Assembly: GCA_900299055.1 (NCBI GenBank)
Contig: OMII01000059.1
Location: 1 to 46,053, forward strand
Reading direction: 5' to 3'
Length of the DNA: 46,053 nucleotides
Source: Pseudomonadota bacterium
Lineage (GTDB): Bacteria; Bdellovibrionota_C; UBA2361; OMII01
The notes beneath the pieces are model-generated. The model was not told the DNA's origin. It searched no databases and was given only the letters and a program-made list of their open reading frames with translations. Shown one piece after another: positions 249-42,132 of the stretch. The position numbers and the translations under genes are program-made. The stretch's first letter is position 1. Every line of letters begins with the position of its first letter.

Positions 249-560
249 GTGAGTATGAACAAGATAAAGCCTCTTGAAAGTGTCGCGGCCCCGGATCTTC
301 GCGGAGCTCAGAAGCCGTTGCCCGCGACGAAGGATCCTGAGGTCGCGGCACAGCAGTTTGAGGCTTTATTAGTTAAGCAGATGATAGACTCCATGTGGAG
401 TACAGTGCCTAAGAAGGGCTTGCTGACGGGCAGTAATGAGGAGTCGATGTACCGCGATATGCTGAACGAAGCTCTCGCAAACTCCATTTCAGAGGGCCGG
501 GGCATGGGTGTGAAGGATGTTATCCTTAAGGATATTAACAAGTTGTCAAAAAGTAAGTAA
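249..560 (+). CDS. flgJ: FlgJ-type rod-binding domain protein, with no muramidase domain
   Basis: 103 aa. The segment AAQQFEALLVKQMIDSMW resembles the FlgJ N-terminal rod-binding motif. It sits directly after flgI. The start is GTG at 249 or ATG at 255. It is too short to hold a glucosaminidase domain. Confidence 0.7.
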   Translation: MSMNKIKPLESVAAPDLRGAQKPLPATKDPEVAAQQFEALLVKQMIDSMWSTVPKKGLLTGSNEESMYRDMLNEALANSISEGRGMGVKDVILKDINKLSKSK

Positions 561-641
561 CCTTTTGGCCGGTTGTAGCATCGAAAGTGATAGGCTGCTC
601 GTGTAGCGGGCGCCTCGGCGGTTTATTCCATAGGATGGATT

Positions 642-1007
642 ATGAAAGTACCGGGATCAGAGGGAAATGAAGGGGTTCTAAAGCGCATCCAGGAAGGACG
701 CGTTGGTGAACAGTCAGCTACTCGCCGTGCAGCGACATCAAACGGGGTCGCGGACGGATTGTCTGGGGAGCTTCAGAAGACCCAGGTAGACACAATGAAG
801 TTCTCGTCGTTAGGCGCCGTGCTTCGCCAAGAGCTCGATCCGGCAAAGATGGCAGAAGAGCGTCGTGCTAAAATAGAGTCCCTTAAGGAGCGAATCCGAA
901 ACGGTTCGTATGCGCCACCGGTAGAGGGTATTGCTCAAGCCTTTGGCGAAGAGATCTCAACAGAGGTTATCTTTGGCGCGCGATTTATGACGGGTGAAGA
1001 GGGGTAA
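642..1007 (+). CDS. flgM: Anti-sigma-28 factor FlgM
   Basis: 121 aa. The C-terminal segment AKIESLKERIRNGSYAPPVEGIAQAF resembles the FlgM sigma-28-binding region. An AGGATGG RBS precedes the start. The position between flgJ and flgN fits. Confidence 0.7.
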   Translation: MKVPGSEGNEGVLKRIQEGRVGEQSATRRAATSNGVADGLSGELQKTQVDTMKFSSLGAVLRQELDPAKMAEERRAKIESLKERIRNGSYAPPVEGIAQAFGEEISTEVIFGARFMTGEEG

Positions 1008-1066
1008 CTCACCTTCCGATACTCGCAGTTCGATTGAAAACGTCACGATAGCCAGGTGTTTCTTAC

Positions 1067-1579
1067 ATGAAGCTCGAACCTAACGTTCTTAAAAACCTGG
1101 AAAGCGCGCTTACAGAAGAGCTGCGGCACTATCAGGAATATTTGCGGATATTAGACGAGGAACAGGAGCGTGTGGTAACGCTCAAAACGGATGAACTTGT
1201 TGAGTTCTCGGCCACACGATCTAAAATAATTGATCGCCTTTCACAGCTCCGGGACACGCGAGTTTCGATCGTTGCCTCAATAGTTGGCAGCGAATCGACC
1301 AAGTTAAGCGATTTTGTGGATACGCTTCCGGCGTCTACCGATAAAAATCGCCTATCCTCCCTTGTGGACAAAATTAAGAGTGCGGTTGAGACGGTAGATA
1401 GAAAGACCAAAGAGTTCAATCAGGTTCTCAATTACTCACTCGGACTTGTGAACGGCGAAATTTCCCTTCTGTGGTCTGCCTCCCAGACTGTAAGTCGGGT
1501 TTATAATGCCTTTGGCTCCGTTATAGAGGGTGCCCAGCCAGCACCCCAACGTGTTGGATCTCTTCTAGGAGAGGCGTAG
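1067..1579 (+). CDS. flgN: FlgN-like flagellar export chaperone
   Basis: 170-aa helical protein (LTEELRHYQEYLRILDEEQERVV...) immediately upstream of flgK, the usual flgN position. The call rests mainly on context. Confidence 0.5.
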   Translation: MKLEPNVLKNLESALTEELRHYQEYLRILDEEQERVVTLKTDELVEFSATRSKIIDRLSQLRDTRVSIVASIVGSESTKLSDFVDTLPASTDKNRLSSLVDKIKSAVETVDRKTKEFNQVLNYSLGLVNGEISLLWSASQTVSRVYNAFGSVIEGAQPAPQRVGSLLGEA

Positions 1580-1609
1580 ATCGCCCTCTATTCGCACGGC
1601 TGCTCATCC

Positions 1610-1625
1610 CGGCACACTCATTGCT
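1610..1625 (+). promoter_or_regulatory. Candidate sigma-54 (-24/-12) promoter for flgK-flgL and downstream genes
   Basis: The sequence cGGCACactcaTTGCt has exact GG-N10-GC spacing and matches TGGCAC-N5-TTGC at 9 of 10 fixed positions. It lies about 60 nt upstream of the flgK ATG. rpoN is encoded in the same window. Confidence 0.55.
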
Positions 1626-1685
1626 TAGTTACAAGAGGACCACCAGCTTCCGGCATATTTTGCCGAGCTGCAGAAGGCGCTCTCG

Positions 1686-3326
1686 ATGGCAAATTTCACA
1701 GCTAAGATCCTCGGCAACTCAGTTAGCGCCATGACGGCGTCGCAGGCCTTGCTGTCAAACGCCTCCAACAACATCGCCAACGTTAATACCCCCGGCTATT
1801 CACGTCGGGATATATCGATACAGACCAGAATTGATCCCGCCGCGGTTGATGGAATACTCCGTATTGGTAGCGGAGTACAACTCGGGGAGATCTCACGAGT
1901 CACAAACTCCTTCCTCGAGGACTCCCTGCGTAGGGCAGTGTCTCGACAAGGTGCGGCGACGGTGCGGAATGAATATCTTGCCCGAGTAGAAAACGTTTTT
2001 AGTCTCAGTGGTCCCACGATGACGGTGGGGTCGACTCTGAATGACTTCTTTTCTGCGGTTAACCAGCTTGGGGTAGACCCATCCAATTTAGATCTGCGCC
2101 TCAATGTTCTGCAGAAGGGAGAAGACCTAGTTGGTACAATCCGTTCGACGTTTCAAGAGATCGCTAATAGCCAGAACGAGCTCGATAAGCGTGTATCTAT
2201 GGAGGTTGGCTCAATTAACTCCATTACAAAAGAGGTTGCTCATCTAAACAGTGTGATAGCACAGCGAGAATCAGTAGGGGTAACAGCGACTGATGAGCGT
2301 GATCAGAGGGATACTGTGCTCTCGAAGTTAGCGGAAAAGATCTCGTTCAACATCGTAGAGACGCCAAATGGCATGGTCAATTGCGTATTGGAGAATGGGT
2401 TTCCACTGGTTAATCAGGAAACCTCGCGTGATCTAAGCGTCACAGCCACACCGACATTTGGGGGCGCTACCATGCCGCGATCGCTGTCCGATAGCGTGCT
2501 TTCGTATGTCGTATATAACTTTGGTTCAGCAGACGCCCCCTCCCACCTTGATCTTACTCAGATGATAAAAAATGGCGGGGGCTCTCTCGCAGGTGTGCTG
2601 CAAATGCGCGGCTACGCGGACCCATCCAATACATCGCCGTATGAAGCGGATGGAGATCTAGTCGCGCTGGCTACTCGAATTGAAGCCCTCACTCGGAACC
2701 TAATAACGGAAGTCAATCAAGTATATCGAGGTGGTGATGAGGATCCAGTTACTGCCGGAGTGCAACCCAGAGCAGGTGACTTGAATGGGAACACGCCAGA
2801 TGTATTCGGTCTATTCGATTTTGATTTCTCTGGGGTTAAAGACTCAGATGGAGATGGAGCGGCTACCGCAACCGATCTCGCAGCGACCGGCCTTCATACC
2901 TTCTCGAATCTGTTGAAATTAGGGATCTCTAGCCCAGATCAATTCGCTGCCGCTCGTGACTTAGACCCAACCCCCGGCAGCCTCGAGTTTGCGACAGGAG
3001 ACGGTTCTAATGCACAAGCTCTGGCAGGTCTACGAACCGACGCATTTTCGTACTCTCTTGGAGCACTGTCGTTTACCGGCACTTTTGATGAGCTGTACAA
3101 CTCGGCGGTAAGTACGGCTGGTAATATGAAGTCAGCAGCTCAGCTTGAGTCAGATGTAGCCAACGCAAGCTATATGACAGCGAGTAGTAAAAGAGACGAG
3201 TTCTCATCAGTGAATCTCGATGAAGAATTTGCGAATGTGATTAAATACCAAAAAGCCTTCCAAGCGTCCGCCCGGATGATCAAGACGGCAAGTGAGATAA
3301 TTGACGTGATCGTGAGCCTTATATGA
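1686..3326 (+). CDS. flgK: Flagellar hook-associated protein 1, FlgK
   Basis: 546 aa. The N-terminus SAMTASQALLSNASNNIANVNTPGYSRRD and the C-terminus EEFANVIKYQKAFQASARMIKTASEIIDVIVSL are FlgK signatures. Confidence 0.9.
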   Translation: MANFTAKILGNSVSAMTASQALLSNASNNIANVNTPGYSRRDISIQTRIDPAAVDGILRIGSGVQLGEISRVTNSFLEDSLRRAVSRQGAATVRNEYLARVENVFSLSGPTMTVGSTLNDFFSAVNQLGVDPSNLDLRLNVLQKGEDLVGTIRSTFQEIANSQNELDKRVSMEVGSINSITKEVAHLNSVIAQRESVGVTATDERDQRDTVLSKLAEKISFNIVETPNGMVNCVLENGFPLVNQETSRDLSVTATPTFGGATMPRSLSDSVLSYVVYNFGSADAPSHLDLTQMIKNGGGSLAGVLQMRGYADPSNTSPYEADGDLVALATRIEALTRNLITEVNQVYRGGDEDPVTAGVQPRAGDLNGNTPDVFGLFDFDFSGVKDSDGDGAATATDLAATGLHTFSNLLKLGISSPDQFAAARDLDPTPGSLEFATGDGSNAQALAGLRTDAFSYSLGALSFTGTFDELYNSAVSTAGNMKSAAQLESDVANASYMTASSKRDEFSSVNLDEEFANVIKYQKAFQASARMIKTASEIIDVIVSLI

Positions 3327-4309
3327 GACGCGTGTCAGAGAATCAAACTACTCGAAACTTAGTTTCGTATGCGCTGGAGAATAAGCGCCGAGTGGGAGAG
3401 TATTCAAAACAACTCACCACAGGTCTCAAAGTCGAAAAGCCGAGCGATTCGATTGACGCGGGGACAATCTCGCGTTACCAGCAGCAGATAGCAAAAATTG
3501 ATACGTATAATAGCACTATCGCCCAAGCAAAGAGCTTTTTGCAGTCCCAGGACGACATTGTCAGTCAAGCAAGTCAGCTCTTAGTGAGGGCAAATGAGAT
3601 TGCGCAACAGGGCGCAAACGAGACGTTGAGTGAGTTTTCTCGCTCGCAGCTCGCTGAAGAGGTATTTCAGATACGGGATCAGATGGCGAGTCTGGCCAAC
3701 TCTACCTTTCAGGGGAAATATGTTTATGGTGGCGTTGATGACGATGACGCTCCATATGATCTCCAGACCTATGCTGAGCCTGTAGATGGAGATGCTAATA
3801 AGCGCTATGTGTTCGATGCAGAGCCAGGTACCGACGTCAGCAAGACAGTGCGGGTCTCCGATGATATCAGTGTGACGCTCAACACTCCGGCGGATAAAGT
3901 TTTTGGTACCTCTATGGAGGCACTCGAGCGTTTATCCAGGGCGCTTGCGGGATATTCGACGAATCCAGCCAGTGGAACCCCCGATGGAACTGGCACTGCG
4001 TACACATTCCCAGATGACTTTCACACCCAAACATCCGATATAAAGGCGTGCATTGATCTTTTAAACTTTGCTCGCGATAAAGAGATGATCCCAGAGCGAG
4101 TCGCTTTAGGCGGACGTTTACGAAGAATTGAGACTGGCACAGCCCTACTTGAGCTGACCAAGAACTCGGCAAAAGAGGCGCTCAGTCGGCTGCAAGATGC
4201 GGACGAGGCGGAGGCGGCGTCCAACCTCCAGCAGGCCCAGACAGCCCTTCAGGCCTCATACTCCGTTACAGCAAAGGTTCTTCGGCTCTCGATCCTTGAT
4301 TACGTATAG
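3323..4309 (+). CDS. flgL: Flagellar hook-associated protein 3, FlgL
   Basis: 328 aa. It overlaps the flgK stop by ATGA. It has flagellin-like terminal helices; the C-terminus reads AEAASNLQQAQTALQASYSVTAKVLRLSILDYV. Confidence 0.8.
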   Translation: MRRVSENQTTRNLVSYALENKRRVGEYSKQLTTGLKVEKPSDSIDAGTISRYQQQIAKIDTYNSTIAQAKSFLQSQDDIVSQASQLLVRANEIAQQGANETLSEFSRSQLAEEVFQIRDQMASLANSTFQGKYVYGGVDDDDAPYDLQTYAEPVDGDANKRYVFDAEPGTDVSKTVRVSDDISVTLNTPADKVFGTSMEALERLSRALAGYSTNPASGTPDGTGTAYTFPDDFHTQTSDIKACIDLLNFARDKEMIPERVALGGRLRRIETGTALLELTKNSAKEALSRLQDADEAEAASNLQQAQTALQASYSVTAKVLRLSILDYV

Positions 4310-4332
4310 CCTTATCGGTCTATACTCGGTTC

Positions 4333-5040
4333 ATGTCTCGAACTGTTGTTTTTATTCCAGTGTACAATGAGGAACCGCATCTTGTTGGCCTGCTGCAGAG
4401 GTTGCGCCAAGTCTACTCGGGAGATGTACTCTGTGTCGACGATGGTTCAGTTGATCGTTCGGGGGAGGTGCTTCGTTCGCTTGAGGGGCCCAGTACTCGG
4501 GTCATCGTCGAACCTAGCAATCGAGGCTATGGCGCAACGCTGCTTCGCGGGTTCAGGGAAGTGATCTCCGAAGGGTATGATTTTGTCATTACTATGGACT
4601 CCGATGGACAGCACCGGCCAGACTGGATTCCTGAGTTCTTCGCGACTATCCCGACGTGGGATGTTGTATCAGGAAGTCGCTATCACTCGGAGATTGACGG
4701 CAATGGAACCGCTCCTGCAGATCGTAGGCGCATAAACATCGAGGTGACAAAGCTAATTAATCAGATAACAGGGTTCGGGATTACCGATGCTTTCTGTGGA
4801 TTTAAAGCCTATCGAGTAGAGGCACTGAAGCAGCTGGATTTGCGAGAGTCGGGATACGCCATGCCACTACAACTCTGGATTCAGGCGAAAGCGCTCGGGC
4901 TGCGGGTGAGGGAGATGCCAGTGTCTCGTATTTACGATGACCCACATCGGACCTTTGGCGGTGAATTGGATGTACCAGAGACGCGATTGGCTTATTATCT
5001 TGATACAATTACCCAGGAGAGGAAGCGATGGAACCTGTAG
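4333..5040 (+). CDS. Family 2 glycosyltransferase of the DPM1/GtrB type, with no transmembrane segment
   Basis: 235 aa. Motifs seen: VFIPVYNEE, VDDGSVDRS, ITMDSDGQH (DxD-type) and DAFCGFKAYR, which is the GT2 polyprenol-phosphate-sugar-synthase-like pattern. The gap after flgL is 23 nt. Confidence 0.8.
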   Translation: MSRTVVFIPVYNEEPHLVGLLQRLRQVYSGDVLCVDDGSVDRSGEVLRSLEGPSTRVIVEPSNRGYGATLLRGFREVISEGYDFVITMDSDGQHRPDWIPEFFATIPTWDVVSGSRYHSEIDGNGTAPADRRRINIEVTKLINQITGFGITDAFCGFKAYRVEALKQLDLRESGYAMPLQLWIQAKALGLRVREMPVSRIYDDPHRTFGGELDVPETRLAYYLDTITQERKRWNL

Positions 5041-5720
5041 TTATGGTAGTCGCGCCGCATCAGGACGACGCGGAAATCGGAATGGGCGGTACTATAGCCT
5101 CTCTGCGGAGCGAGGGAGTACGAGTAGTGATAGTGGACCTCAGTGATGGTGAGCCCACGCCATTTGGTAGTCCTGAAATACGGGCACGAGAAACGAAAGC
5201 TGCTTCCTCGATCTTAAAGATAGAGGAGCGAGAGCTGCTTGGTCTCCCTAATCGTGAGATTACTGACTCTACGGAGAATCGTAAGCGACTTGCATCATGC
5301 ATTCGCAGATACAAGCCTGAGATAATATTCGCCCCGTATTGGAGTGACGCGCATCCTGACCACGTACAAGCCTCCGCCCTGGTTGATGCTGCGCGCTTTT
5401 ACGCAAAGTTCGTAAAGACAGATATGCCCTATGAACCCTGGTACGTACGGTCTCAGTTTTATTTCTTCTCGACACATATGAAAGTGAGAATTCAACCGTC
5501 ATATGTGTACGACATCTCAGGATTCTTGGAGAGTAAATTGTCTGCGATCCGTGCGTTTGAGTCGCAGTTCGTGTTGCATCAGAAGAACGCCCAGCGCCTG
5601 CAAGAGATAGAGACAGAGGCTCGTTATTGGGGTAACCAACTAGGGGTAGAAGCGGGGGAGCCCTTCGTGAGTAAAGAGAACGTGCGGGTCAAGAGCGCTG
5701 CGCAACTGTTTTCGTTGTAG
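5028..5720 (+). CDS. PIG-L/LmbE family N-acetylglucosaminyl deacetylase, BshB1-like
   Basis: 230 aa. Motifs seen: VVAPHQDDAEIGMGGTIA, DLSDGEPTPFGSPEIRARE and DAHPDH. These parallel B. subtilis BshB1 (AHADDVEIGMGGTIAK...DLT...HPDH) as I recall it. It overlaps the GT2 gene by 13 nt. Confidence 0.8.
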   Translation: MEPVVMVVAPHQDDAEIGMGGTIASLRSEGVRVVIVDLSDGEPTPFGSPEIRARETKAASSILKIEERELLGLPNREITDSTENRKRLASCIRRYKPEIIFAPYWSDAHPDHVQASALVDAARFYAKFVKTDMPYEPWYVRSQFYFFSTHMKVRIQPSYVYDISGFLESKLSAIRAFESQFVLHQKNAQRLQEIETEARYWGNQLGVEAGEPFVSKENVRVKSAAQLFSL

Positions 5721-5729
5721 GTTTGACGA

Positions 5730-7205
5730 ATGTCAGATGTGATCGTTCCCCCATACCCTGACTGGAAGGCGCTGCTTGAGCAGAGTATGAAGGCCCGCCC
5801 AGAAATAGCAGCTGCTGTTGGTGCTCATGAAGTCTTAAATGCTCGGGCAGACGTAGCTGAGTGCGCACAAAGATACACCGATTATCTGCTACGCGCAGCT
5901 TCGGAGCGCGGTATTCGTTTAGTTGATGCGGGCGATCTGCCTGACAATAGCCAAGATGCAGCCGTAATGGCTGGTCATCAGCCGGTGGTATTTCATCCTG
6001 GGCTACTCCTCAAGGCGCAGATCCTCTCTAAGTTCTCCAGGGAATCGGGAGCGCTTGGTATACCGGTGATTATCGATACAGATGCGGGAGATCTGTGTGA
6101 AATTAGCTGGCCGCGCGTCAGTGGTGATGCGCTCCTGGTACGGCGTGCCTCAATAGCGTGTGCCACAGTGCCGAGCAATCAGAACGTTGATGCTCCAGTG
6201 CTCTACTCAGCGCAACAAATTAAGACTCGAGATGAAATTCATGAAATTTTTAGCGAGATGCAGACCGATCTTCTCGCAGCCGGTCTGGATAGTGCGGCAG
6301 AGCGCGCTAGAAAAGTTGGTGCAGTATACGAGCTCCTTGCCGGTTGTTCTCTAGCGATGGCGAACTCGATTGCTCGCTGGAGTTTTGAGCGAAGAGGGTA
6401 CCGAGAAGTGCCACTCTCAATGCTCCTACGAGATACGTCGCTACGTCATGTTGTTTCAAAGCTAGCGCAAGATTCAACTAGGTTATTTGAGACGTATAAC
6501 GGATGTCTCGACAATTATCGGCGCGAACATTCGATTAAGAACGTAGCGAATCCATTTCCAAACCTGAAAAAGCGTGATGACTCGTTTGAGTTGCCATTCT
6601 GGGTCGTCCGAGATGGTGAACGGCAGCCTTTGTGGAGTAGTGACAAGGACCTCGTCGATTTCGGAGAAGAGACATACCTTGCGACGCGGGGAAGTATTAC
6701 CACCATGATACTGCGAGCGTATTGCTCAGATCTGTTTATCCATGGGATAGGTGGTGGAAAATACGATCGGTTCGTTGATAGCTTTGGCGCGCATTACTTA
6801 GGCACTCCGCTTTCACCGTTTGTAGTGGCGAGCCGCACGCGTGTAATCAATCCGAGTCGAGTGGATGAGTTATCCGCAGCTGTGTTGAGAGGAAGCTCCA
6901 TGAAACAAGTGGTGTCCCAGACAGAGCTTTATTTAGGGAAGGGTATCTTCACGGCTCAGGAGGAGTGTCGATTGCGGGAGGTGCTGGCGAAGCGGGCTCG
7001 ATTACGCGAGCAGTTGGGGACGGCTGCCAGTCCGGAAGAAAAGAGCACGGTCGCGCACGCTTTAAATCAGATGAATACGGAAGTTCGCGAAGTTGTCCAA
7101 GGGAGCATCTTGCAGTCGGATGTCGCTGAGCTACCGAGAAATCAGAAGCTGCTAGAAGGGTGGAGCTATCGGGAGTTTCCATATTTTCTCTTTGAAGGTG
7201 ACTGA
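5730..7205 (+). CDS. Conserved hypothetical protein, a distant BshC-like (putative cysteine/amino-acid ligase family) candidate
   Basis: 491 aa. AAVMAGHQPVVFHPGLLLKAQIL...GIPVIIDTDAGDLCEI parallels BshC AAVVGGQQAGLLTGPLYTIHKII...VPVIPIFWVAGEDHDLDEI. DLFIHGIGGGKYDRF parallels LAFIAGPGEINYW. The tail is helical and charged. The similarity was judged by eye only. Confidence 0.4.
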   Translation: MSDVIVPPYPDWKALLEQSMKARPEIAAAVGAHEVLNARADVAECAQRYTDYLLRAASERGIRLVDAGDLPDNSQDAAVMAGHQPVVFHPGLLLKAQILSKFSRESGALGIPVIIDTDAGDLCEISWPRVSGDALLVRRASIACATVPSNQNVDAPVLYSAQQIKTRDEIHEIFSEMQTDLLAAGLDSAAERARKVGAVYELLAGCSLAMANSIARWSFERRGYREVPLSMLLRDTSLRHVVSKLAQDSTRLFETYNGCLDNYRREHSIKNVANPFPNLKKRDDSFELPFWVVRDGERQPLWSSDKDLVDFGEETYLATRGSITTMILRAYCSDLFIHGIGGGKYDRFVDSFGAHYLGTPLSPFVVASRTRVINPSRVDELSAAVLRGSSMKQVVSQTELYLGKGIFTAQEECRLREVLAKRARLREQLGTAASPEEKSTVAHALNQMNTEVREVVQGSILQSDVAELPRNQKLLEGWSYREFPYFLFEGD

Positions 7206-7219
7206 CAGGGAAGGCGCGG

Positions 7220-7240
7220 CACACCTTCGGTAGAAGTGTG
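7220..7240 (+). terminator. Stem-loop after the BshC-like gene, possibly a terminator (no U-tract)
   Basis: CACAC(C)TTC-GGTA-GAAGTGTG forms 8 bp with one bulge and a 4-nt loop, starting 15 nt after the TGA at 7203-7205. No T-run follows it. Confidence 0.3.
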
Positions 7241-7470
7241 GACAAGAGGCGTGTCTAATCTCGACTCGGGTTGGGTCGAATTGGTCGGTTGTGATCGTAT
7301 CACGTGAGGCGCGAATAGTCGGTTTAAGCTCTACACTCATCGCAATCTCACCCAAATGAACTGCCCTAGCGGCGATTATCCGAGAACTCAGAAATGAATT
7401 GACTCCTCTTTCGGCAAACGACAGACTCATCGGCTACGGTTTTTCTGACTTCCCGTAAGAGAGGATTATC

Positions 7471-8133
7471 ATGCGAGACAATCCCTTTCGGCCTGGAACG
7501 ATGGAGCATTGGTTAGTTGGTAGACCAAACCAAGTGTCAGCGAAAATCATGTTGTGCTTAGTTACATTGCTAACGGCGACTCCATTTTTTTCGCTTCCTG
7601 GGACTTTCGTTTTGATGTCTATCATCGCTGTTCACGAGTATGGCCACATAGCGGCAATGCGAGTGTGCGGGATCCCCACTGCTGGGTTTTATTTTTTGCC
7701 GATGGCGGGTGGAATCGCGATTCCGCTGCGAGGATGGCGTTCGCTGGAGTCCACTGTGATGGTATCTCTCGGCGGCGCGGTTGTTGGCGCCATCGGAACG
7801 CTCGCGCTGATGGTGGTGTATCTAGTCTATCCAGATGTGATTCTGGGGGGGGTGATTTGGTTGTCGGCTTTGGGCAATCTTGTTGGTCTGATTCCCCTAT
7901 CGCGTTTGGACGGCGGAAGGTGTCTGCAAGCGGTCTTCTGCTCTCTCTGTGGAAGAGAGACTGCGACGTGCGACCCTGGTTCGGGATGGGAGGATCTCCT
8001 CGCCATCTTGAGTTATCTTGGGATCGTTGGGGCACTTGTGGCGATTATCGTCGATTCAACGCTCCTCAGTGATGCACTCGAGGCGTGGGTATACTGGCGG
8101 TTTTTGGTATATGGTGGATACTTTTCACCCTAG
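7471..8133 (+). CDS. Peptidase M50 (site-2 protease family), minimal membrane-core form
   Basis: 220 aa. It has HEYGH (HExxH) inside a hydrophobic segment and a second motif GNLVGLIPLSRLDGG (NxxPxxxLDG). It is hydrophobic throughout. A GAGAGGA RBS precedes the start. Confidence 0.8.
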   Translation: MRDNPFRPGTMEHWLVGRPNQVSAKIMLCLVTLLTATPFFSLPGTFVLMSIIAVHEYGHIAAMRVCGIPTAGFYFLPMAGGIAIPLRGWRSLESTVMVSLGGAVVGAIGTLALMVVYLVYPDVILGGVIWLSALGNLVGLIPLSRLDGGRCLQAVFCSLCGRETATCDPGSGWEDLLAILSYLGIVGALVAIIVDSTLLSDALEAWVYWRFLVYGGYFSP

Positions 8134-8157
8134 CTGCTTCGGCACTAGGGTTTTTTT
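8128..8157 (+). terminator. Rho-independent terminator of the M50 protease gene
   Basis: CCCTAG(C)TGC-TTCG-GCACTAGGG followed by TTTTTTT. That is a 9-bp stem with one bulge, a UUCG tetraloop and a T7 tract. The stop codon TAG (8131-8133) lies within the 5' arm. Confidence 0.8.
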
Positions 8158-8410
8158 GTGCCCAATACTTTCGGGGGAGACGACGGCGACAATGCAGCCA
8201 GTCGATAGCTTGCGTGTCTACACTGGCGGTTAATGCGCTCGGATGTGGGCCGCCCTTGGGGAGGTCCGTTGTCGTGGCGGCAGTAGCTCCTCTAATGGTC
8301 TAATATGACTAAGTAGTTAAGTCTGTTTTGGTGCTGCCAGCGAGCAAGGTCTATATCGCGAGACCTGGCCATCGCCGGAGATACCGTTTGATTAACGCTG
8401 GGCTTTTGTT

Positions 8411-9001
8411 ATGCTTCCAGCGTCTGTCGTACTTTTTGGAGCCTTAGCGGTCATGAAATACGTAAAGCACGCTGTATGTGTACTTGTTCTCGTTCTGATA
8501 ATGACTTCTTCGGAAGTTTTCGCGGCAACAAATCCGTGTTACGTGGCTCAGTCAAATGCAACGCGTGCCCAGCGTAATCTCGATTACGCGAGCCAGCAGT
8601 TGCTGAGAACACAAGATGCGTATTACGACGCACAGAATCGAGTGAGCTATCAACAGTCGCTCTATCAGGGTTACGTAGATCAGGCATACGCTAATGTGCA
8701 GGCTAGCCGCACGATCAATACCGGTTATGCTGGAGCTTGCGTGGTAAATTTTTTCTTCTTTCGACGTTCGTACGGATGTTTCTCTGGTGCGATATCTTCT
8801 TCTGCGGCTCGCCAGGCGAGCGCCAACTCGCAATATAACGCAGCGGTGGGCAGACGTAATGCGTACATTGTGTACGCGCAGGGCTACATCCGGCGTGCCG
8901 CTGACAGAGTGAATTACGCGCAGACACAAGTAAACAACTTCACCATCGCCAATGATCAGGCGCAGGTGCAATATCAGCAGTGTCTTAGTTCTAACGCCTA
9001 A
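8411..9001 (+). CDS. Secreted Q/Y/N/A-rich protein with two Cys-bracketed repeats (hypothetical)
   Basis: The likely true start is the ATG at 8453, giving MKYVKHAVCVLVLVLIMTSSEVFA|ATNP, a classic signal peptide. The mature part has four Cys that delimit segments of 68 and 69 aa, joined by VVNFFFFRRSYG. I recognise no family. Confidence 0.55.
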   Translation: MLPASVVLFGALAVMKYVKHAVCVLVLVLIMTSSEVFAATNPCYVAQSNATRAQRNLDYASQQLLRTQDAYYDAQNRVSYQQSLYQGYVDQAYANVQASRTINTGYAGACVVNFFFFRRSYGCFSGAISSSAARQASANSQYNAAVGRRNAYIVYAQGYIRRAADRVNYAQTQVNNFTIANDQAQVQYQQCLSSNA

Positions 9002-9010: not shown

Positions 9011-10195
9011 CTACAGTCCCAGAGCGCTGGCTGCTTGATTGTACAGGTACAGCAAGCTCTCAATAGGGAGCTCCGCTCCGCGCAAGGTCGGAGCGTCTAG
9101 TTTATTTCGATTTGGATCTACCAAGCAAAGGTCAGGATCGGCGATGGGGGATTCTCCTTCGTAGTTACGCTCTAACAGGGTGCGGAGAGCCCAGTATCGT
9201 GATGCGTAGAGATCGTAAGCCTCGTGCTCGCTTCCAGCTTTGGATTCCATTTCGGTGGCACTTTGTTCCCCAGAGAGATGGGCTTCGCTGGTGACGATGT
9301 CTGAGCCGAAGAGAACGCGGCCTCTCCATCTCTCAAAGAAGTCTCTTAGTTCAAGCGGTGTATGTTTGCTTAGCTCACGAACGATCCATTTAGTAGCGCT
9401 ACAATCGAGGTAGAGATTTTGATGACGGCTGAGGAGTTTAGATAGGAACGGAAGATCTTCAGGGTAACCTCCCATGTGAGCGGCTATCCAGGGATTGGGA
9501 AAAAGGTCGAGCACTTCTTCGAGCGTTTCATATTGCTCGCATTTCGTACCGTATTTAGTTGAGTCGGAGTATTTTGTTTGGAACCACGTGTCGGGGTCTC
9601 CGATGTGCACCATAAACATCATCCCTAGGTCCGCCGCCGCGCGCATCGCCTCTTTACGCAGCGCAGAGTTGAGTCGAAGCCGGCTTGAAGCAAACGGCTC
9701 AGAAGTAACTTCGTATATTCGCGGCGCGTTCCAAAACTTAGCTATTCGAGTTCCCGCTCTTTTGAATGCCTGCAGATCTCGGATAAACCCCGGGCCGAAG
9801 GCCTGAAGTCTGTCGTTGTTACTGAAGTTTGGAATGGCAATGAATCGTACGCTGTCTCCGAGGATGTTCTGGACTGCTGGGATCTCGCTGAGGCTCGTCA
9901 TGGAGTATGTTCGAACGATGCCGTAGTGTTGAGCTGCCTGCGCGTATATCCTCGCCGCCCTCTCTCCGTGAATGTGTGAGTGAACATCGATAATACCGTC
10001 TTGTATCGGTGGAAAGGACTGACTCTCGAGGGCGTAGCGTAGGTTAAGGCGATTTGCGGGTTTCATAGGGGCCACCTGGTAGTATGCCAAAAACTGCAGT
10101 AGGGCGTCATTCCATATAGTGTGGAACGCCCAATCTAGCGATCGAACTCCGTTTTTCGGTAAAATAAGCGGAAGTTCTTGGTTAGCCAAGATCAT
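9011..10195 (-). CDS. Metal-dependent amidohydrolase (TIM-barrel, Amidohydro_2-like)
   Basis: 394 aa. It has IDVHSHIHG (HxH metal motif), then FMVHIGD, AAHMGG, LYLDCSA and VLFGSD, which is the typical strand-end pattern of amidohydrolase-superfamily enzymes. Confidence 0.7.
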   Translation of the reverse strand: MILANQELPLILPKNGVRSLDWAFHTIWNDALLQFLAYYQVAPMKPANRLNLRYALESQSFPPIQDGIIDVHSHIHGERAARIYAQAAQHYGIVRTYSMTSLSEIPAVQNILGDSVRFIAIPNFSNNDRLQAFGPGFIRDLQAFKRAGTRIAKFWNAPRIYEVTSEPFASSRLRLNSALRKEAMRAAADLGMMFMVHIGDPDTWFQTKYSDSTKYGTKCEQYETLEEVLDLFPNPWIAAHMGGYPEDLPFLSKLLSRHQNLYLDCSATKWIVRELSKHTPLELRDFFERWRGRVLFGSDIVTSEAHLSGEQSATEMESKAGSEHEAYDLYASRYWALRTLLERNYEGESPIADPDLCLVDPNRNKLDAPTLRGAELPIESLLYLYNQAASALGL

Positions 10196-10281: not shown

Positions 10282-11778
10282 ATGAAGCGACTCGACGTGG
10301 GACCTTCCCTCACATGGCCGACCGAGGCACTGCGAGCGAGGAGCTTAATAGGTGGTGAGTGGGTCTCTGGCTCTGCTAACACCACGACCGTAACTAGCCC
10401 GTACAACGGGCAATCCCTGGGAGAGCTCCACCACGCATCGTCGTCGGATGTAAGCCGAGCGGTAGAAAGCGCAGCCAGCGTATCGAAGGAGTGGCGGCTG
10501 GTTCCTATAAAGGAGCGAGCGTCGCTGCTTCTCGAATTTCGGAATCTTCTCGCGCGGGACATCGATCGCCTAAGCGTGAGCGCTGCCTTAGAGTCTGGAA
10601 AGACGTTCTCAGAAGCAAAAGCGGAGGTCCTAAAGGCGATAGAAGTCGTCGAGTTTGCCTCAAGTCTAGAAAATAGTGACCTTGGTGGAGCGATCGAAGT
10701 TAGCCGCGGAGTTTCGTGTGAATATCGGAGGGAGCCTCTTGGAGTAGTTGCAGGTATCACGCCATTCAATTTTCCGGCAATGGTCCCGATGTGGATGATA
10801 CCAATCGCACTAGCTCTGGGTAACGCGTTTATCCTAAAGCCCTCGGATAAAGTTCCACTGACCCCATGTATACTAGCCGAGCTTATTGCAGCGGCTGGGT
10901 TTCCTGCTGGAGTCTTTTCGATACTTCAGGGGGGACGCTCAGTCGTAGAGCAGTTAGTTGTAGATCCTCGAGTGCAAGCGGTCGGGTTTGTGGGCTCAAG
11001 TGCAGTCGCTCAGGCGGTATATGCGCAAGCTACATCGACGGGAAAGAGAGCTCTTTGTTTGGGAGGTGCTAAAAATCATCTAATTGTCGCTCCAGACGCG
11101 GACCCTGCAATCACCGTGGACGGCATTGTCGCGTCCTTTACCGGCTGTGCCGGTCAACGATGTATGGCGGCCAGTGTGCTCGTGGCGGTAGGCAATGTTG
11201 ATCACATTATAGACGCGGTCGTTGAGCGGGCATCTCAGATACTGCTTGGGAGAGACATGGGGGCACTTATCGACGCAGCGGCGGTTTCGCGTTTGTCAAA
11301 GGCCGTCGCGACAGCAGCGCGTGAAGGAGCGACCATTCGGCTTGATGGTAGGAATGTGGTTCCACCTACCGGCAGTGAGAAAGGAAACTGGTTTGGCCCG
11401 TCTATAATCGATAACGTGCGGCCTTCGATGGAGTGCTCCTGTGTGGAGTTGTTTGGGCCAGTTTTATCTATTGTACGAGTTCGTACTATTGACGACGCGC
11501 TTAAGCTGGAGCGTGAGAGTGCATACGGCAATGCTCTCTCAATTTTCACGACGAGTGGCTCGGTCGCTCGGCACGTAGCGGACCGTGCCACCTCCGGTAT
11601 GATCGGGATTAATGTTGGCGTTCCTGTTCCTCGCGAGCCCTTCTCGTTTGGAGGAACAAAGGACTCTAAGTTTGGTGTTGGAGATATAACGGGTTGGGGT
11701 GGAGTGGAGCTATGGTCGACTCGCAAAAAGATCACCACCAAGTGGTCGACCCAGAGCGATAAAAATTGGATGTCCTGA
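10282..11778 (+). CDS. mmsA: CoA-acylating (methyl)malonate-semialdehyde dehydrogenase
   Basis: 498 aa aldehyde dehydrogenase. It has FNFPAMVPMWMIPIALALGNAFILKPS and the catalytic-Cys context FTGCAGQRCMAASVLV, which is characteristic of the MMSDH subfamily. Confidence 0.85.
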   Translation: MKRLDVGPSLTWPTEALRARSLIGGEWVSGSANTTTVTSPYNGQSLGELHHASSSDVSRAVESAASVSKEWRLVPIKERASLLLEFRNLLARDIDRLSVSAALESGKTFSEAKAEVLKAIEVVEFASSLENSDLGGAIEVSRGVSCEYRREPLGVVAGITPFNFPAMVPMWMIPIALALGNAFILKPSDKVPLTPCILAELIAAAGFPAGVFSILQGGRSVVEQLVVDPRVQAVGFVGSSAVAQAVYAQATSTGKRALCLGGAKNHLIVAPDADPAITVDGIVASFTGCAGQRCMAASVLVAVGNVDHIIDAVVERASQILLGRDMGALIDAAAVSRLSKAVATAAREGATIRLDGRNVVPPTGSEKGNWFGPSIIDNVRPSMECSCVELFGPVLSIVRVRTIDDALKLERESAYGNALSIFTTSGSVARHVADRATSGMIGINVGVPVPREPFSFGGTKDSKFGVGDITGWGGVELWSTRKKITTKWSTQSDKNWMS

Positions 11779-11797
11779 GAGAATTTCGAGGAAGTGC

Positions 11798-13057
11798 ATG
11801 ACTGAGAAGAAGAGAGCAGTAAAGCCGATAGTACTAACATCACACCCATCGGCGCGAACGCCGGTCTCCTATCCGATTCAGTGGGGAGAGCGCGATCCTA
11901 AACGTAGAGGGCCAATTATCGGAACGCTCACCACACCGGAGCACCGCAATTGCATGGGCACTCACTCTGGAGCTTATTCGGTATATCGTGCGTTGGCAGT
12001 GGCCGCAGGCAGTCTTGATCCGCTTCATGTGCCGGATTTAACTAACACTGCGCCAGTAGATCGAATCGGCCCTTTTGATAGCTGGTACGAGCCTAAGCGA
12101 ATCGTATCGATGGATCCGTGGGGGGCTGATGTGGGAGAAGTCTTCCGCGATGAGATTAAGGCAGGTGTAAACATTCAGCCTACCATCGCTATAACTCGAG
12201 CTCATATCACGATGCCTGAGATTGTCGAGGAAGTACGACGCGGAGGTATTTCAGTTGATGGAGAGATAGTTGGTGCTAACGGAGACTGTAAGGTCACAAA
12301 AGCAGCCATAGAGCCAGTGTGGTTTCTTCCGGCGGTCGCTGAGCGGTTTGGCATCGCAGAGTCCGAGCTCAGGCGCGCACTGTTTGAGCATACGGGCGGT
12401 ATGTTTCCTGAGCTCATTACACGGTCAGATCTGCATGTGCTTCTGCCCCCAATCGGAGGACAGACTGTCTATTTCTTTGGAGAGGTAGCTTCGATTCCAG
12501 ACCTTACCAAGGAACTGACAATACGAATTCATGACGAATGCAACGGATCTGATGTGTTTGGGTCTGATATTTGCACCTGTCGACCATATTTGATTCACGG
12601 CATCGAGGAGTGTGTTAAAACGGCGCAGAGAGGTGGTTGCGGAGTCATTGTATATAATCGCAAAGAGGGGCGAGCGCTCGGAGAAGTGACGAAGTTTCTT
12701 GTCTACAACGCGCGTAAACGCCAAGAGGGAGGTGATAGAGCTGATATGTATTTTCACCGCACCGAGTGTATCGCAGGCGTGCAAGATATGCGTTTTCAAG
12801 AGCTCATGCCGGACGTGCTTCATTGGATGGGGATCAAGCGAATAGACCGCCTCGTGTCGATGAGTGACATGAAGTATAACGCGATCACGCGCTCTGGTAT
12901 TGAGGTTGTAGAGCGTGTTTCGATACCGGACGATCGTATCCCAGCGGATGCTCGTGTGGAAATGGATGCTAAGAAGGCAGCCGGATACTTTGCTGAGCAC
13001 GGGGCCCCTACTGAAGAAGATTTGAAGAAAACAAAAGGACGAGGACTTCTTGAGTAA
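11798..13057 (+). CDS. GTP cyclohydrolase II-like protein of the URC1 type
   Basis: I trimmed the start to the ATG at 11798, because the track ORF start at 11699 overlaps mmsA. 419 aa. It has IRIHDECNGSDVFGSDICTCRPYL (a GCH-II zinc motif variant) and a long N-terminal extension, the architecture I recall for yeast URC1 and its bacterial homologs. Confidence 0.75.
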   Translation: MTEKKRAVKPIVLTSHPSARTPVSYPIQWGERDPKRRGPIIGTLTTPEHRNCMGTHSGAYSVYRALAVAAGSLDPLHVPDLTNTAPVDRIGPFDSWYEPKRIVSMDPWGADVGEVFRDEIKAGVNIQPTIAITRAHITMPEIVEEVRRGGISVDGEIVGANGDCKVTKAAIEPVWFLPAVAERFGIAESELRRALFEHTGGMFPELITRSDLHVLLPPIGGQTVYFFGEVASIPDLTKELTIRIHDECNGSDVFGSDICTCRPYLIHGIEECVKTAQRGGCGVIVYNRKEGRALGEVTKFLVYNARKRQEGGDRADMYFHRTECIAGVQDMRFQELMPDVLHWMGIKRIDRLVSMSDMKYNAITRSGIEVVERVSIPDDRIPADARVEMDAKKAAGYFAEHGAPTEEDLKKTKGRGLLE

Positions 13058-13138
13058 GAAGTACTTACCATTCTCTGTGAGGACGCCAATCTTCACAGAA
13101 CCTAGGATAGTGTGCGTAAGGCAAGGGACGTATCGTAT

Positions 13139-13771
13139 ATGAAAAATCCGCAAGTAACAGTTATTTCGCATCCTCTTGTACAACATAAGCTGACTCTGAT
13201 GAGGATGGAGACGACACAAACCTCGGACTTTCGGCGACTTCTTCGAGAGGTGAGTATGCTTTTAGCCTACTAAGTAACGAGAGACCTCCCAGTCGTTATG
13301 ACCGAGATAAAGACGCCAATTCAAATGATGAAGGCGCCTATGATCGAGAAGAAAATTACACTCGTTTCGATTCTCAGGGCAGGGAATGGAATATTAGAGG
13401 GAATGCTAGAGTTGCTGCCATCGGCTCGGGTTGGTCATATCGGGTTGTACCGGGATCCACAGACCCTAACTCCAGTGGAATACTACTTCAAGATGCCGCC
13501 AGATATGTCACAGCGTGATGTGATCGTTGTGGATCCGATGCTGGCCACGGGGAACTCGGCGGCGGCAGCGCTTAGTCGTTTGAAGACTCAGAAGCCCCTA
13601 TCTCTCAAATTTGTCTGCTTAATCGCCTGCCCGGAGGGTGTGGAATTGCTCACCTCTGAGCATCCTGACGTGCCAATTTACACAGGAGCGATCGATGAGA
13701 GGCTTAATGAACATGGATACATAGTGCCAGGATTAGGGGACGCTGGAGATCGCATCTACGGCACCGTTTAA
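13139..13771 (+). pseudogene. upp: Uracil phosphoribosyltransferase interrupted by one in-frame TAA (13271-13273)
   Basis: The ATG at 13139 gives [44 protein letters not shown], then TAA. The same frame continues [13 protein letters not shown]...[10 protein letters not shown]...[17 protein letters not shown]. The whole 210-codon frame is colinear with E. coli Upp, and the stop sits where Upp has Glu (LLTY-E-ATADL). Confidence 0.85.
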
Positions 13772-20287: not shown

Positions 20288-21274
20288 CTAAAGCGTTGAT
20301 GCTATTGCAGCGGCGCCATAGAGAGCCGCATGGTCGTCGTTGACGATAAATACAGGCGTAGCTTCGACACTTTCGCGCTGCTTTCCTTTGTTCAGATAGC
20401 CTTCAAGGAATCGCCCTTTGAGCAAGAATGGAGCTATCTTGGGAGGAATGCCCCCTCCAAGATAGACCCCGCCAGTGGCCAAAAAAGTAAGTACGATATT
20501 GCCGCAGTGGGCGCCAAGCATAGAGCAGAAGAGCTCTAGCGCTTGAGAAGCTAGCTCGTTTGATCCATCCATCGCATTTGCGGCGATAGCAGATGCTGAG
20601 ATGTTTTCCTGCTGGGCAAGGTCTACCTGAAGCGAAGAGTTTTGAGTGTCGCGAAGAAAACAATAGATGTTGACGAGGCCTGGACCGCACAGTACGGACT
20701 CAACGCTCACGTGTCCCAGCTTTTGTTGTAGATATTGCAACAACTCAATCTCGATCTTATTTGTTGGTGCGAAGTTCGCGTGCCCTCCCTCGGAGGGAAG
20801 CAGAACGCTCCAGCCTCCTTCTCGGTGTATCAAGGCGTGTCCGATGCCAGTTCCAGGGGCGACCACAACGCATGACCCAGCCCTGTCAACACTCCCGCTG
20901 CCTTCATACACTGTCGTAAGGCTTGTTGGGCCTAAGGTAGGAATTGCGGCCGCGGTGCTCACAAGGTCGTTGACTAATTTGACTTTGGTAATCCCGAGCC
21001 GATTAGCCACGCCTGATTGTACGACTTCCCACGGGAGATTCGTCACGCGCACTCTTCCGTTAATTACGGGGCCTGGGAGCCCGAAACACGCGGCCTCTAT
21101 TGGACTCTGGCTTGAAGTGGTGTGGGCGCTGAGAAAAGCATCAAGAATGCTCTCTAGGGTTTTAAAATCCTTGCTCGTATACTGGTCGGAGACCACAAGC
21201 TCGACTTTGCCTCCTCGGCGGTCGAACAATCCAATGCGGGCTTTCGTTCCACCAATATCTCCGGCAAGTATCAT
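20288..21274 (-). CDS. glk: Glucokinase
   Basis: 328 aa. It has the N-terminus MILAGDIGGTKARIGLF (ATP-binding motif of bacterial Glk) and a length typical of the Glk family. Confidence 0.85.
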   Translation of the reverse strand: MILAGDIGGTKARIGLFDRRGGKVELVVSDQYTSKDFKTLESILDAFLSAHTTSSQSPIEAACFGLPGPVINGRVRVTNLPWEVVQSGVANRLGITKVKLVNDLVSTAAAIPTLGPTSLTTVYEGSGSVDRAGSCVVVAPGTGIGHALIHREGGWSVLLPSEGGHANFAPTNKIEIELLQYLQQKLGHVSVESVLCGPGLVNIYCFLRDTQNSSLQVDLAQQENISASAIAANAMDGSNELASQALELFCSMLGAHCGNIVLTFLATGGVYLGGGIPPKIAPFLLKGRFLEGYLNKGKQRESVEATPVFIVNDDHAALYGAAAIASTL

Positions 21275-21660
21275 TGATTTATTTCCTTCGTATGAGTTCG
21301 TGATGTAGCCAGCACACAGCTACCATGCGCATCTGCTCCATCTCTTCTAATCATCGCTTACGCGATGACCGACTGCAAACCGCTCTCGGTATCGCTGGGG
21401 TGCGTCCAGTAGGGGCGCGCCCTAATCTGCGGTCGTTCCGCAGGTCTATCCTATAGCATTCAAAACAAAGTTCTCCAATAAAGGAAGATTCTGCGTCAAG
21501 ACGCTCGGCTCAGATGGTAATCACCTGCGATTTCATGGACTTCCCCGATAGGCCCTCGTATACTTCCCCTCTGTATGGAAAAGGTCGTCAGGGTAATGAT
21601 TCACGGCGCGGAGAGAGTAAGACCATCTTCTTGTGGTGCTGACAGTCGGGTGACGGGCCT

Positions 21661-23046: not shown

Positions 23047-23086
23047 CGAACTTTAATCGGTTCTTACGTTCGCCATTTGATACGCT

Positions 23087-24241: not shown

Positions 24242-24276
24242 ATGTGTATTGAGCCCAGGATAGTAGAACGATACTT

Positions 24277-25014
24277 CTACCTTGGATTGAGCTTCTCGAA
24301 GATTTGATCGAGCGCCTCTCGTGAGGATAATCTGTTCCGTTCCGAAAACTCGAAGCCGAATTCCTGAGAACCTGATGCCAGTTGGTGCCAAGCGTGATCG
24401 GCAAAGGTATCGAGTGGTACTCCGTCGTCGTGAAGGCCTACTCCGCCTAGGTCGGTTTGTACCTTGGGCGGAATTACTTCCACAACGCGCACTGATGTGT
24501 CACGTAGCTGATGGCGCAAACTCAGTGTATAAGAATGAAGTGCCGCTTTTGTTGCGCAGTACATTGGCATGAATGCTAATGGCGAAAATGCCAAGCCAGA
24601 TGAAATGTTAATAATTGCAGCGTTGGGCTTGTTAATGAAGTGTTTGGCGAAGAGTAGAGAGAGATGGACGGGGGCTTCGAAGTTGATCGCAAGCTCTTGT
24701 CGATAAGTCGCGAAATCTTGTTCTGTCATCACCGATGGTGGACGATTCTGTATCCCCGCGTTGTTGATCAAAATATCGATGTCAGGGTGGTCGCTAGCAA
24801 CCTGCTCGAAGAGTTGCAGGCGCTCGCTCTCTGACGAGACGTCAGATCGGATTGTTATAAGTCCAGGCAGTTCGTGACGTGCGGCGTTGAGGCGATCGGC
24901 GCGGCGCCCACAGACGATCACCTTGCTGCGCACCGCTATAAATCTCTTCGCCAGAGCGAAGCCGATGCCTGTTGCGCCACCAGTGATAAGTACCGTCCTA
25001 TTACTCAAAATCAT
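24277..25014 (-). CDS. Short-chain dehydrogenase/reductase (SDR)
   Basis: 245 aa. It has the cofactor motif LITGGATGIGFA, then NNAG, and the catalytic YCATKAALHSY (YxxxK). Confidence 0.85.
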   Translation of the reverse strand: MILSNRTVLITGGATGIGFALAKRFIAVRSKVIVCGRRADRLNAARHELPGLITIRSDVSSESERLQLFEQVASDHPDIDILINNAGIQNRPPSVMTEQDFATYRQELAINFEAPVHLSLLFAKHFINKPNAAIINISSGLAFSPLAFMPMYCATKAALHSYTLSLRHQLRDTSVRVVEVIPPKVQTDLGGVGLHDDGVPLDTFADHAWHQLASGSQEFGFEFSERNRLSSREALDQIFEKLNPR

Positions 25015-26321: not shown

Positions 26322-26470
26322 CTAGCTCCGGCGGGATTGAGTGCAAGTAGTTGAATTTCCGCCATGTCACGCCTCGTGTTTCATAAAGAGCAGCGTGCAA
26401 AGCACATTCACCATTCTATCTGTCATATCTAGTCAGGAGACCTGCCCGTCGAGCGAGAGGCGATAGGCGG

Positions 26471-42131: not shown

Positions 42132-42132
42132 A

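Follow-up and report, generated by a model that had tools for sequence, protein, structure and literature searches.

We analysed a 46,053-nt stretch of DNA (contig OMII01000059.1, positions 1 to 46,053 of the forward strand; assembly GCA_900299055.1) from a Pseudomonadota bacterium placed by GTDB in Bdellovibrionota_C (UBA2361; OMII01). This whole stretch is referred to below as the window. Three adjacent genes at 4333-7205, which follow the flagellar genes flgK and flgL, encode a family 2 glycosyltransferase (GT2), a deacetylase of the PIG-L type and a 491-amino-acid (aa) protein that we call X; together they are termed the cassette. The original prediction, made from the letters of the window, had seen in them a candidate non-canonical thiol or aminosugar-conjugate pathway, possibly linked to the flagellum. 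The features of the locus are as follows:

642-1007, + strand: flgM, an open reading frame (ORF) of the window
1067-1579, + strand: flgN, an ORF of the window
1610-1624, + strand: sigma-54-type promoter-like site CGGCAC-N5-TTGC, 5' of flgK; possible start of read-through into the cassette
1686-3326, + strand: flgK, hook-associated protein 1 (TIGR02492, 292.1 bits, cutoff 170.75); context, outside the cassette function
3323-4309, + strand: flgL, hook-associated protein 3 (TIGR02550, 164.7 bits, cutoff 127.2); upstream context
4333-5040, + strand: GT2 glycosyltransferase, 235 aa, without transmembrane segments (PF00535, 1.5e-26); proposed step 1
5028-5720, + strand: BshB1-type PIG-L/LmbE zinc deacetylase, 230 aa (PF02585, 1.6e-26; TIGR04001); proposed step 2
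5730-7205, + strand: X, 491 aa, with a predicted BshC fold (AlphaFold2/Foldseek); proposed step 3, putative amino-acid ligase
9011-10195, - strand: Amidohydro_2 protein (PF04909, 4.9e-11), a possible accessory enzyme and a weak lead only

The coordinates and junctions of the genes had been given correctly in the original prediction and matched the ORF list exactly: flgL and the GT2 gene are separated by 23 nt, the GT2 and PIG-L genes overlap by 13 nt, and 9 nt separate the PIG-L gene from that of X. A hydrophobic-window scan found no transmembrane segments in GT2, PIG-L or X (a nearby M50-like protein, taken as a control, gave 44 windows), and no RNA element was found at the locus with Rfam. 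Pfam and NCBIfam bore out the identities of the flagellar genes.

GT2 was assigned to its general family with a PF00535 score of 93.8 bits (cutoff 23.3). Its nearest solved relatives are PfDPMS (1.1e-13) and ArnC (7e-12), and the best NCBIfam model was that of PpgS (NF058614; 2e-20), at 73.2 bits against a cutoff of 370. The models of the dolichyl-phosphate (Dol-P) hexose transferase (57.9 bits, cutoff 375) and of ArnC (NF007986; 55.2 bits, cutoff 529) followed, and none of these equivalog cutoffs for polyprenyl-phosphate GT2 enzymes was reached. The earlier description of the transferase as a DPM1-like GT2 free of transmembrane segments was thus supported by NCBIfam, the PDB and the transmembrane scan, the nearest enzymes being of the DPM1/ArnC/PpgS type. 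The motif D-x-D-x-Q-H is present in all 70 orthologs. A segment equivalent to the interface helix resembles that of ArnC, a likeness that does not settle whether the acceptor is soluble or a lipid, and UniProt automatically names the Blastopirellula ortholog an undecaprenyl-phosphate mannosyltransferase. The transferases of bacillithiol and mycothiol synthesis, BshA and MshA, are retaining GT4 enzymes that give alpha-linked products; a GT2, by contrast, inverts. No GT4 matching the BshA model TIGR03999 was found in or near the cassette within the 46-kb window. The GT4 gene at 21661-23046 did not qualify as a hidden BshA: it scored 87.4 bits vs 273.7, is glycogen-synthase-like and adjoins a GH57 gene.

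The second protein passed the cutoff of the BshB1 model TIGR04001 narrowly (189.8 bits vs 182.5), as did a cassette deacetylase from an actinobacterium (187.5 bits), in line with the original reading of the middle gene as a BshB1-type PIG-L deacetylase. Its scores on the MshB and Mca models were 31 (cutoff 224) and 23 (cutoff 277), and its nearest PDB entries are TT1542 (1.5e-41), the BshB protein BC1534 (1.7e-32) and BshB1 of Bacillus subtilis (2.5e-30). The zinc and catalytic motif of this family has been defined as H-x-D-D plus H (PMC4101496); the corresponding segments P-H11-Q-D13-D14 and H109-P-D111-H112 are intact, and HPDH occurs in 31 out of 31 cassette orthologs. Two arginines of BshB, Arg53 and Arg109, have been proposed to contact its substrate, the malate glycoside of N-acetylglucosamine (GlcNAc-Mal), Arg109 on the basis of docking (PMC4101496). 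Of this pair the window protein retains the equivalent of Arg53 only; the Arg109 equivalent is Ala108. Arg109 is common to BC1534, B. subtilis BshB1 and TT1542, whereas the position is A, V or S in all 31 cassette orthologs; in the close homologs, 120 out of 120, it is A, V, L, I or Q. Homologs P0391-P0503 carry the JGI/NCBI label 'bacillithiol biosynthesis deacetylase BshB1', occasionally 'Mycothiol S-conjugate amidase' or MshB; none has a recognisable BshA or BshC adjacent and all lack the equivalent of BshB Arg109, and their BshB1 naming is probably over-specific.

X gave no match in Pfam or NCBIfam even at E<=10, and no match to PDB sequences either as a single query (phmmer) or as a 49-member profile (hmmsearch). 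None of the 49 family members was found by the BshC models PF10079 and PF24850 at E<=10. When two X profiles were aligned to a BshC profile with hhalign, the probabilities came to 0.15% and 0.29%; the BshC profile was built from the true sequence of the BshC structure 4WBD and only Bacillaceae sequences of >=45% identity, which limits its reach. As a control, B. subtilis BshC scored 667.7 bits on TIGR03998. By hidden Markov models (HMMs; PF10079 with PF24850, and TIGR03998), X consequently falls outside the BshC family.

The predicted structure of X gave a different picture. Its AlphaFold2 model (predicted local distance difference test score, pLDDT, 92.9) was compared with the PDB using Foldseek, and the top match was 4WBD, B. 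subtilis BshC (E 6.9e-11, probability 1.00, 483 columns, template modelling (TM) scores 0.46/0.43). It was the sole structural match below 1e-3; TyrRS and other class I aminoacyl-tRNA synthetases (aaRS) appeared at E>2e-3. A second, independent model, of a Blastopirellula homolog (P0072; 27% identical to X, pLDDT 94.0), again found 4WBD on top (E 2.2e-13, TM 0.50/0.49, 528 columns), with class I LysRS next at 2e-6. After BshC, the two models matched only class I aaRS, with LysRS, TyrRS and TrpRS next in line. In these models X has the architecture of BshC, with a class-I-aaRS-like Rossmann core and a C-terminal helical domain.

The motifs that had been picked out by eye in the 491-aa protein proved to be invariant across the X family and to lie on strand-helix junctions of the model. 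The motif G82-H-Q-P...H89.G91...K95 is at the junction of strand 78-83 and helix 90-106, the segment I111-P-V-I-I-D116-T-D118 follows strand 109-114, F336-I-H-G-I-G-G-G-K-Y345 joins strand 335-338 to helix 340-357, and the C-terminal tail is helical (409-478). Matching by eye places the first of these opposite G90-Q-Q-A-G...G98-P-L-Y-T-I-H-K105 of BshC, at the first Rossmann strand-helix junction, D116.D118 opposite E133-D-H-D136, both after the next strand, and the last opposite F347-I-A-G-P-G-E-I-N-Y356, with identical spacing of F, G, G and Y. The two main motifs are collinear in both families, the second following the first by 254 residues in X and by 257 in BshC. The BshC motifs G-G-Q-Q...K and F-I-A-G-P-G-E..Y-W thus have counterparts in X on matching structural elements, a by-eye correspondence for which there is no significant alignment. 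No invariant cysteine and no obvious zinc site of the CysRS/MshC kind were apparent among the invariant residues. The description of X as BshC-like, which the original prediction had tied to profile or structural similarity, was therefore upheld in its structural half, by the fold and by two motifs matched by eye, and failed in its profile half, with every sequence model. We therefore treat X as a separate family with the architecture of BshC, outside the BshC family as now defined.

An HMM search of 1.84 billion cluster representatives (clusters at 50% identity) gave 3,799 X family members at E<=1e-3, of which 2,365 reach E<=1e-30. Homologs are annotated as 'hypothetical protein' in their sources, and there is no X model in Pfam (2025) or NCBIfam (June 2026). 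A scan of one genome per species confirmed at least 549 loci. The 80 best of these came from Bdellovibrionota (the closest relatives), Planctomycetota (the majority), Coriobacteriia and other Actinomycetota, metagenome-assembled genomes (MAGs) of Firmicutes type, Armatimonadota, Nitrospirota, Nitrospinota and Leptospiraceae. Since the Bdellovibrionota are closest, the window almost certainly belongs to that phylum. Cultured Planctomycetes with the cassette include Blastopirellula, Pirellula staleyi, Novipirellula, Roseiconus and Stieleria.

Gene order was analysed in 84 loci. Because the same GT2 ortholog (43-52% identical across phyla) stands directly upstream of X on the same strand in 70 of them, the arrangement is far beyond chance. 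Among loci with enough flanking sequence, it was found in 36 of 39 from Planctomycetes, 9 of 9 from Actinomycetota/Coriobacteriia, 9 of 10 from Bdellovibrionota and 5 of 5 of Firmicutes type. Outside the Planctomycetes, each of the groups has a PIG-L gene between GT2 and X; with this exception the expectation that the three genes recur together across phyla was borne out.

Several genes with redox-type functions adjoin the cassette. In 12 actinobacterial and Firmicutes-type loci, the gene immediately 5' of GT2 codes for an OsmC-family peroxidase. Thioredoxin_9 genes (PF14595, active-site motif WCGDC) occur in three Bdellovibrionota loci (L006:4739-5329, L007:5522-6112 and L008:5991-6581); no homolog was found in the 46-kb window. 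DinB-like genes were found in two Planctomycete loci. Redox-type neighbours recur independently, in three different phyla. In four Planctomycete loci (L003:9652-10992; L056, L061, L068) a gene for a 446-aa GNAT acetyltransferase lies directly 3' of X. As a side observation, a DinB_2 gene is near the GNAT gene in L003, and the two beside X recall MshD and the DinB-type thiol transferases of mycothiol and bacillithiol systems. No conserved membrane protein, flippase or GT-C transferase accompanied the cassette in the 84 loci, and the other conserved neighbours were set aside as housekeeping (NIF3, IF3, EVE, PlsY, diacylglycerol kinase, type II secretion ATPase, TPR and NDK).

The sigma-54-like site at 1610-1624 has one mismatch to TGGCAC-N5-TTGC, and its GGCAC-N5-TTGC core is retained at -71 to -75 of flgK in seven relatives (L001, L002, L004-L008), where the flanks have diverged. 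It carries the GG-N10-GC spacing of -24/-12 elements, and rpoN is encoded in the window (39215-40684); the promoter proposed at 1610 thus gained support from conservation. A pattern scan of 500-8500 found 12 terminator-like sites against 7.1 +/- 2.8 in shuffled sequence, that is, no enrichment, and no convincing intrinsic terminator inside the cassette. A hairpin at 4327-4345, the sole candidate at a junction, was folded and rejected as an flgL terminator, since it overlaps the GT2 start codon and has a z of -1.3 relative to shuffled sequence; the earlier statement that no terminator interrupts the cassette agrees with both analyses. Given the conserved sigma-54 core, rpoN in the window and the lack of a convincing terminator, read-through into the cassette from the flgK promoter is plausible in this Bdellovibrionota lineage. 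A separate element, the palindrome CGGCA-N5-TGCCG at 1652-1666, was noticed 3' of the sigma-54-like site, about 20-35 nt before the flgK start. It is kept at the same position in L001, L002 and L004-L008 (with the variants GGGCA..TGCC and GGCAC..TGCC in L006 and L007) and makes up the apex of a predicted hairpin (z -1.8) without a match in Rfam; a regulator may bind there, or the element may affect mRNA stability.

Taken together, the protein families, the fold, the motifs and the gene order are best accounted for by a cytoplasmic pathway in which a glycosyltransferase, a deacetylase and an amino-acid ligase act in turn to make a conjugate resembling bacillithiol (BSH) or mycothiol (MSH), most likely a cysteinyl thiol. 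This reading, which retains the non-canonical thiol or aminosugar-conjugate pathway of the original prediction, is the one that we tentatively favour. In the first step, GT2 would move GlcNAc from UDP-GlcNAc onto an acceptor; since GT2 enzymes invert, the product would be beta-linked. The BshB1-type zinc deacetylase would then free the 2-amino group of this product, and X would acylate the freed amine, the amino acid added being most likely cysteine. The result would be a low-molecular-weight thiol related but not identical to bacillithiol. It is probably not bacillithiol itself, because the cassette deacetylases lack Arg109 and a GT2 takes the place of the GT4 BshA. A more specific version, which we regard as possible but rather doubtful, is that the cassette makes a beta-linked cysteinyl-glucosaminide thiol with a non-malate aglycone, and that this is the missing major redox buffer of several phyla, namely Planctomycetota and parts of Bdellovibrionota, Coriobacteriia and other Actinomycetota, Armatimonadota, Nitrospirota, some Firmicutes and Leptospiraceae. 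If so, the X family would offer a second, independent entry to the unsolved BshC reaction.

A number of observations weigh against the thiol pathway. The link between X and BshC is absent at the sequence level, and the TM-scores of the structural matches are moderate (0.43-0.50). Because the reaction of BshC itself has never been reconstituted in vitro (PMC5790435), we infer the ligase chemistry and the cysteine specificity of X only at two removes, and the case for a ligase role is weaker than the fold match suggests. The closest characterised relatives of GT2 all use polyprenyl phosphates, not soluble acceptors. The Planctomycete loci have no PIG-L gene within 8 kb of X; a homolog search with the deacetylase, aimed at unlinked PIG-L genes in Planctomycetes, gave only close relatives of >=55% identity. 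The redox neighbours are each limited to a clade, so that shared ancestry could explain them, and the window has none.

The affinities of GT2 raise the alternative of a lipid-linked aminosugar. GT2 would then be a polyprenyl-phosphate GlcNAc synthase of the PpgS/DPM1/ArnC type acting at the membrane surface, PIG-L would deacetylate the lipid-linked sugar, and X would modify or aminoacylate the polyprenyl-phosphate glucosamine as a donor for an envelope polymer. PpgS and human DPM1, which also lack transmembrane segments, act on lipid carriers, and PIG-L deacetylates GlcNAc-phosphatidylinositol (GlcNAc-PI). The best relatives of GT2 (PpgS, the Dol-P hexose transferase, ArnC and PfDPMS) are all polyprenyl-phosphate transferases, with which its automatic name in UniProt and its ArnC-like interface-helix segment agree. 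Against this stand the equivalog scores far under the cutoff (73 vs 370), a deacetylase that is of the BshB1 rather than the GlcNAc-PI type, neighbours that, where conserved, are soluble redox proteins, and the lack of a conserved flippase, GT-C transferase or other membrane protein in all 84 loci; we consider this route unlikely. Somewhat less probable in our view is a non-thiol aminoacyl-glucosaminide, in which X would add not cysteine but a different amino acid or some other carboxylate, to give a compatible solute, a cofactor precursor or a signal. No sequence feature of X specifies cysteine, be it an invariant cysteine or an obvious zinc site of the sort seen in CysRS and MshC, the tandem GNAT gene is restricted to four Planctomycete loci, and the redox neighbours are clade-limited. 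However, the sole characterised protein with the BshC fold adds cysteine, as known from genetics (PMC5790435), the OsmC, Thioredoxin_9 and DinB associations extend over three phyla, and the cassette occurs in lineages without a known thiol.

Genuine bacillithiol (Cys-GlcN-malate) could also be made by non-orthologous enzymes, with GT2 in place of BshA and X as a very divergent BshC. The deacetylase, which is above the BshB1 cutoff and named BshB1 by annotation pipelines, and the fold of X would fit, but bacillithiol is alpha-linked through a retaining GT4 whereas GT2 inverts, Arg109, kept from Bacillus to Thermus, is replaced in all cassette deacetylases, and the BshC models miss X, so this is improbable. 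Least probable of all is a glycan or cofactor made specifically for the flagellum, that is, for the hook-associated proteins or flagellin, although the tight spacing after flgL, the conserved upstream sigma-54 promoter and the lack of a convincing terminator speak for it. The adjacency to flgK-flgL is retained in about 9 loci, down to 36-39% identity in X, all of them in one Bdellovibrionota subclade (the window, L001, L002, L004-L008 and the contig of P0020). The other roughly 75 loci, from at least seven other phylum-level groups, have no flagellar neighbours, the full triad stands without flgKL alongside in L026, which is a more distant locus of the Bdellovibrionota, and in L006-L008 flgL is followed by a gap of 84-342 nt and by the gene of the 196-aa Thioredoxin_9 protein, which separates it from GT2. 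Moreover, the cassette proteins are cytoplasmic and no flagellar glycan transferase is present. The flagellum-linked pathway of the original prediction was thus not borne out: because the linkage is confined to a single subclade, is missing in L026 and is interrupted by a thioredoxin gene in L006-L008, the flgKL placement looks like a lineage-specific one that is not part of the cassette function.

Some further features of the flanking DNA were recorded. In six Bdellovibrionota loci, an Amidohydro_2 homolog is found no more than a few kb from the cassette. In L011, a frameshifted Planctomycetales MAG, a homolog 41-43% identical lies between GT2 and X (~6648-7692); an adjacent PIG-L gene is absent there, and the order GT2, Amidohydro_2, X comes from tblastn only, the ORFs being broken by frameshifts. 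Amidohydro_2 may be an accessory or alternative hydrolase. A small M50-like membrane metalloprotease (7471-8133, + strand; HEYGH motif; PF02163, 31.6 bits vs cutoff 27.2) is encoded between X and the next conserved ORF; L001 and L002, though syntenic in other respects, lack it. An ORF at 8411-9001 (+ strand) encodes a Q/Y/N/A-rich protein of 196 aa with a signal-peptide-like N-terminus and no match in Pfam or NCBIfam; L001 and L002 keep it just 3' of X (69% identity), and the same slot on the contig of P0020 holds an ORF of 181 aa. Genes for an aldehyde dehydrogenase, a URC1-like protein (GTP_CH_N plus GTP cyclohydrolase II) and a uracil phosphoribosyltransferase follow at 10282-13771 (+ strand), syntenic in L001 and L002, a row reminiscent of uracil catabolism by the URC pathway. 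With its listed GTG start (11699), the URC1-like ORF would overlap the preceding ORF by 80 nt, and the real start is probably later. The region 20288-30463, with a glucokinase (- strand), the glycogen-synthase-like GT4 (21661-23046), GH57 (23087-24241) and a GH63/MGH1-like hydrolase of 925 aa (27686-30463, - strand), looks like a cluster for alpha-glucan or glucosyl-solute metabolism. An lptB-like ABC ATPase, rpoN and rapZ (37636-38529) are encoded at 37636-45292 (- strand) in a classical arrangement that confirms the presence of sigma-54 in the organism, with S-adenosylmethionine synthetase next to them (36274-37524).

Redox homeostasis and detoxification depend on low-molecular-weight thiols such as glutathione, mycothiol and bacillithiol. 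For Planctomycetes, Spirochaetes and further major lineages, a thiol is neither documented nor predicted (PMC6282198), and the occurrence of the cassette in Planctomycetes and Leptospiraceae fits this distribution. The cassette is thus a concrete candidate for a missing thiol pathway, directly testable in cultured Planctomycetes. A 2025 survey of BSH genes relied on BLAST with CtBshA, CtBshB and CtBshC and thresholds of identity and coverage (PMC12719100), which would miss X. We found no published description of the cassette in the literature searched, the coverage of which excluded most subscription journals. The family also exposes an annotation problem, in that the deacetylase is called BshB1 where BshA and BshC are unrecognisable and X is left as 'hypothetical protein'. 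Moreover, a family that appears to share the fold and conserved motifs of BshC points to the truly essential residues and provides alternative proteins for reconstitution.

Bacillithiol synthesis (BshA, a GT4; BshB1/B2; BshC) follows the same three-step logic, the cassette deacetylase reaches the BshB1 cutoff, and X is predicted to share the BshC fold over essentially its full length, including the helical tail, together with two Rossmann-type motifs matched by eye. The systems differ in that BshA is a retaining GT4 of the GT-B fold and the cassette transferase an inverting GT2 of the GT-A fold, that X is invisible to BshC HMMs and hhalign, and that the deacetylase lacks Arg109. The cassette genes are also contiguous, whereas bshC of B. 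subtilis lies apart from bshA-bshB1 (PMC5790435). Mycothiol synthesis (MshA, a GT4; MshB, a PIG-L protein; the CysRS-like MshC; the GNAT MshD) has the same order of transferase, PIG-L and class-I-aaRS-fold ligase, and the large GNAT after X in four Planctomycete loci recalls MshD; however, the cassette deacetylase is far under the MshB and Mca cutoffs, X is no CysRS homolog by sequence, and the transferase is a GT2, not a GT4. The initiation of glycosylphosphatidylinositol (GPI) synthesis by the PIG-A complex (GT4) and PIG-L likewise transfers GlcNAc and then removes the N-acetyl group, but onto phosphatidylinositol, with a GT4 and without a ligase step, and the cassette deacetylase is of the BshB1 type. 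In its GT2, the cassette is most similar to the polyprenyl-phosphate aminosugar routes (PpgS/Rv3631, for galactosamine on arabinogalactan; ArnC-ArnD, for L-Ara4N on lipid A). In these, too, a GT2 is paired with an enzyme that takes an N-acyl group off the lipid-linked sugar. Their last step, however, falls to a GT-C transferase in the membrane (Rv3779, ArnT), and ArnD is of the NodB type, not PIG-L. The cassette instead combines its GT2 with a soluble third enzyme with a predicted BshC fold and has no conserved membrane partner. By analogy with these systems, the cassette would follow the pathway logic known from bacillithiol and mycothiol with different enzymes.

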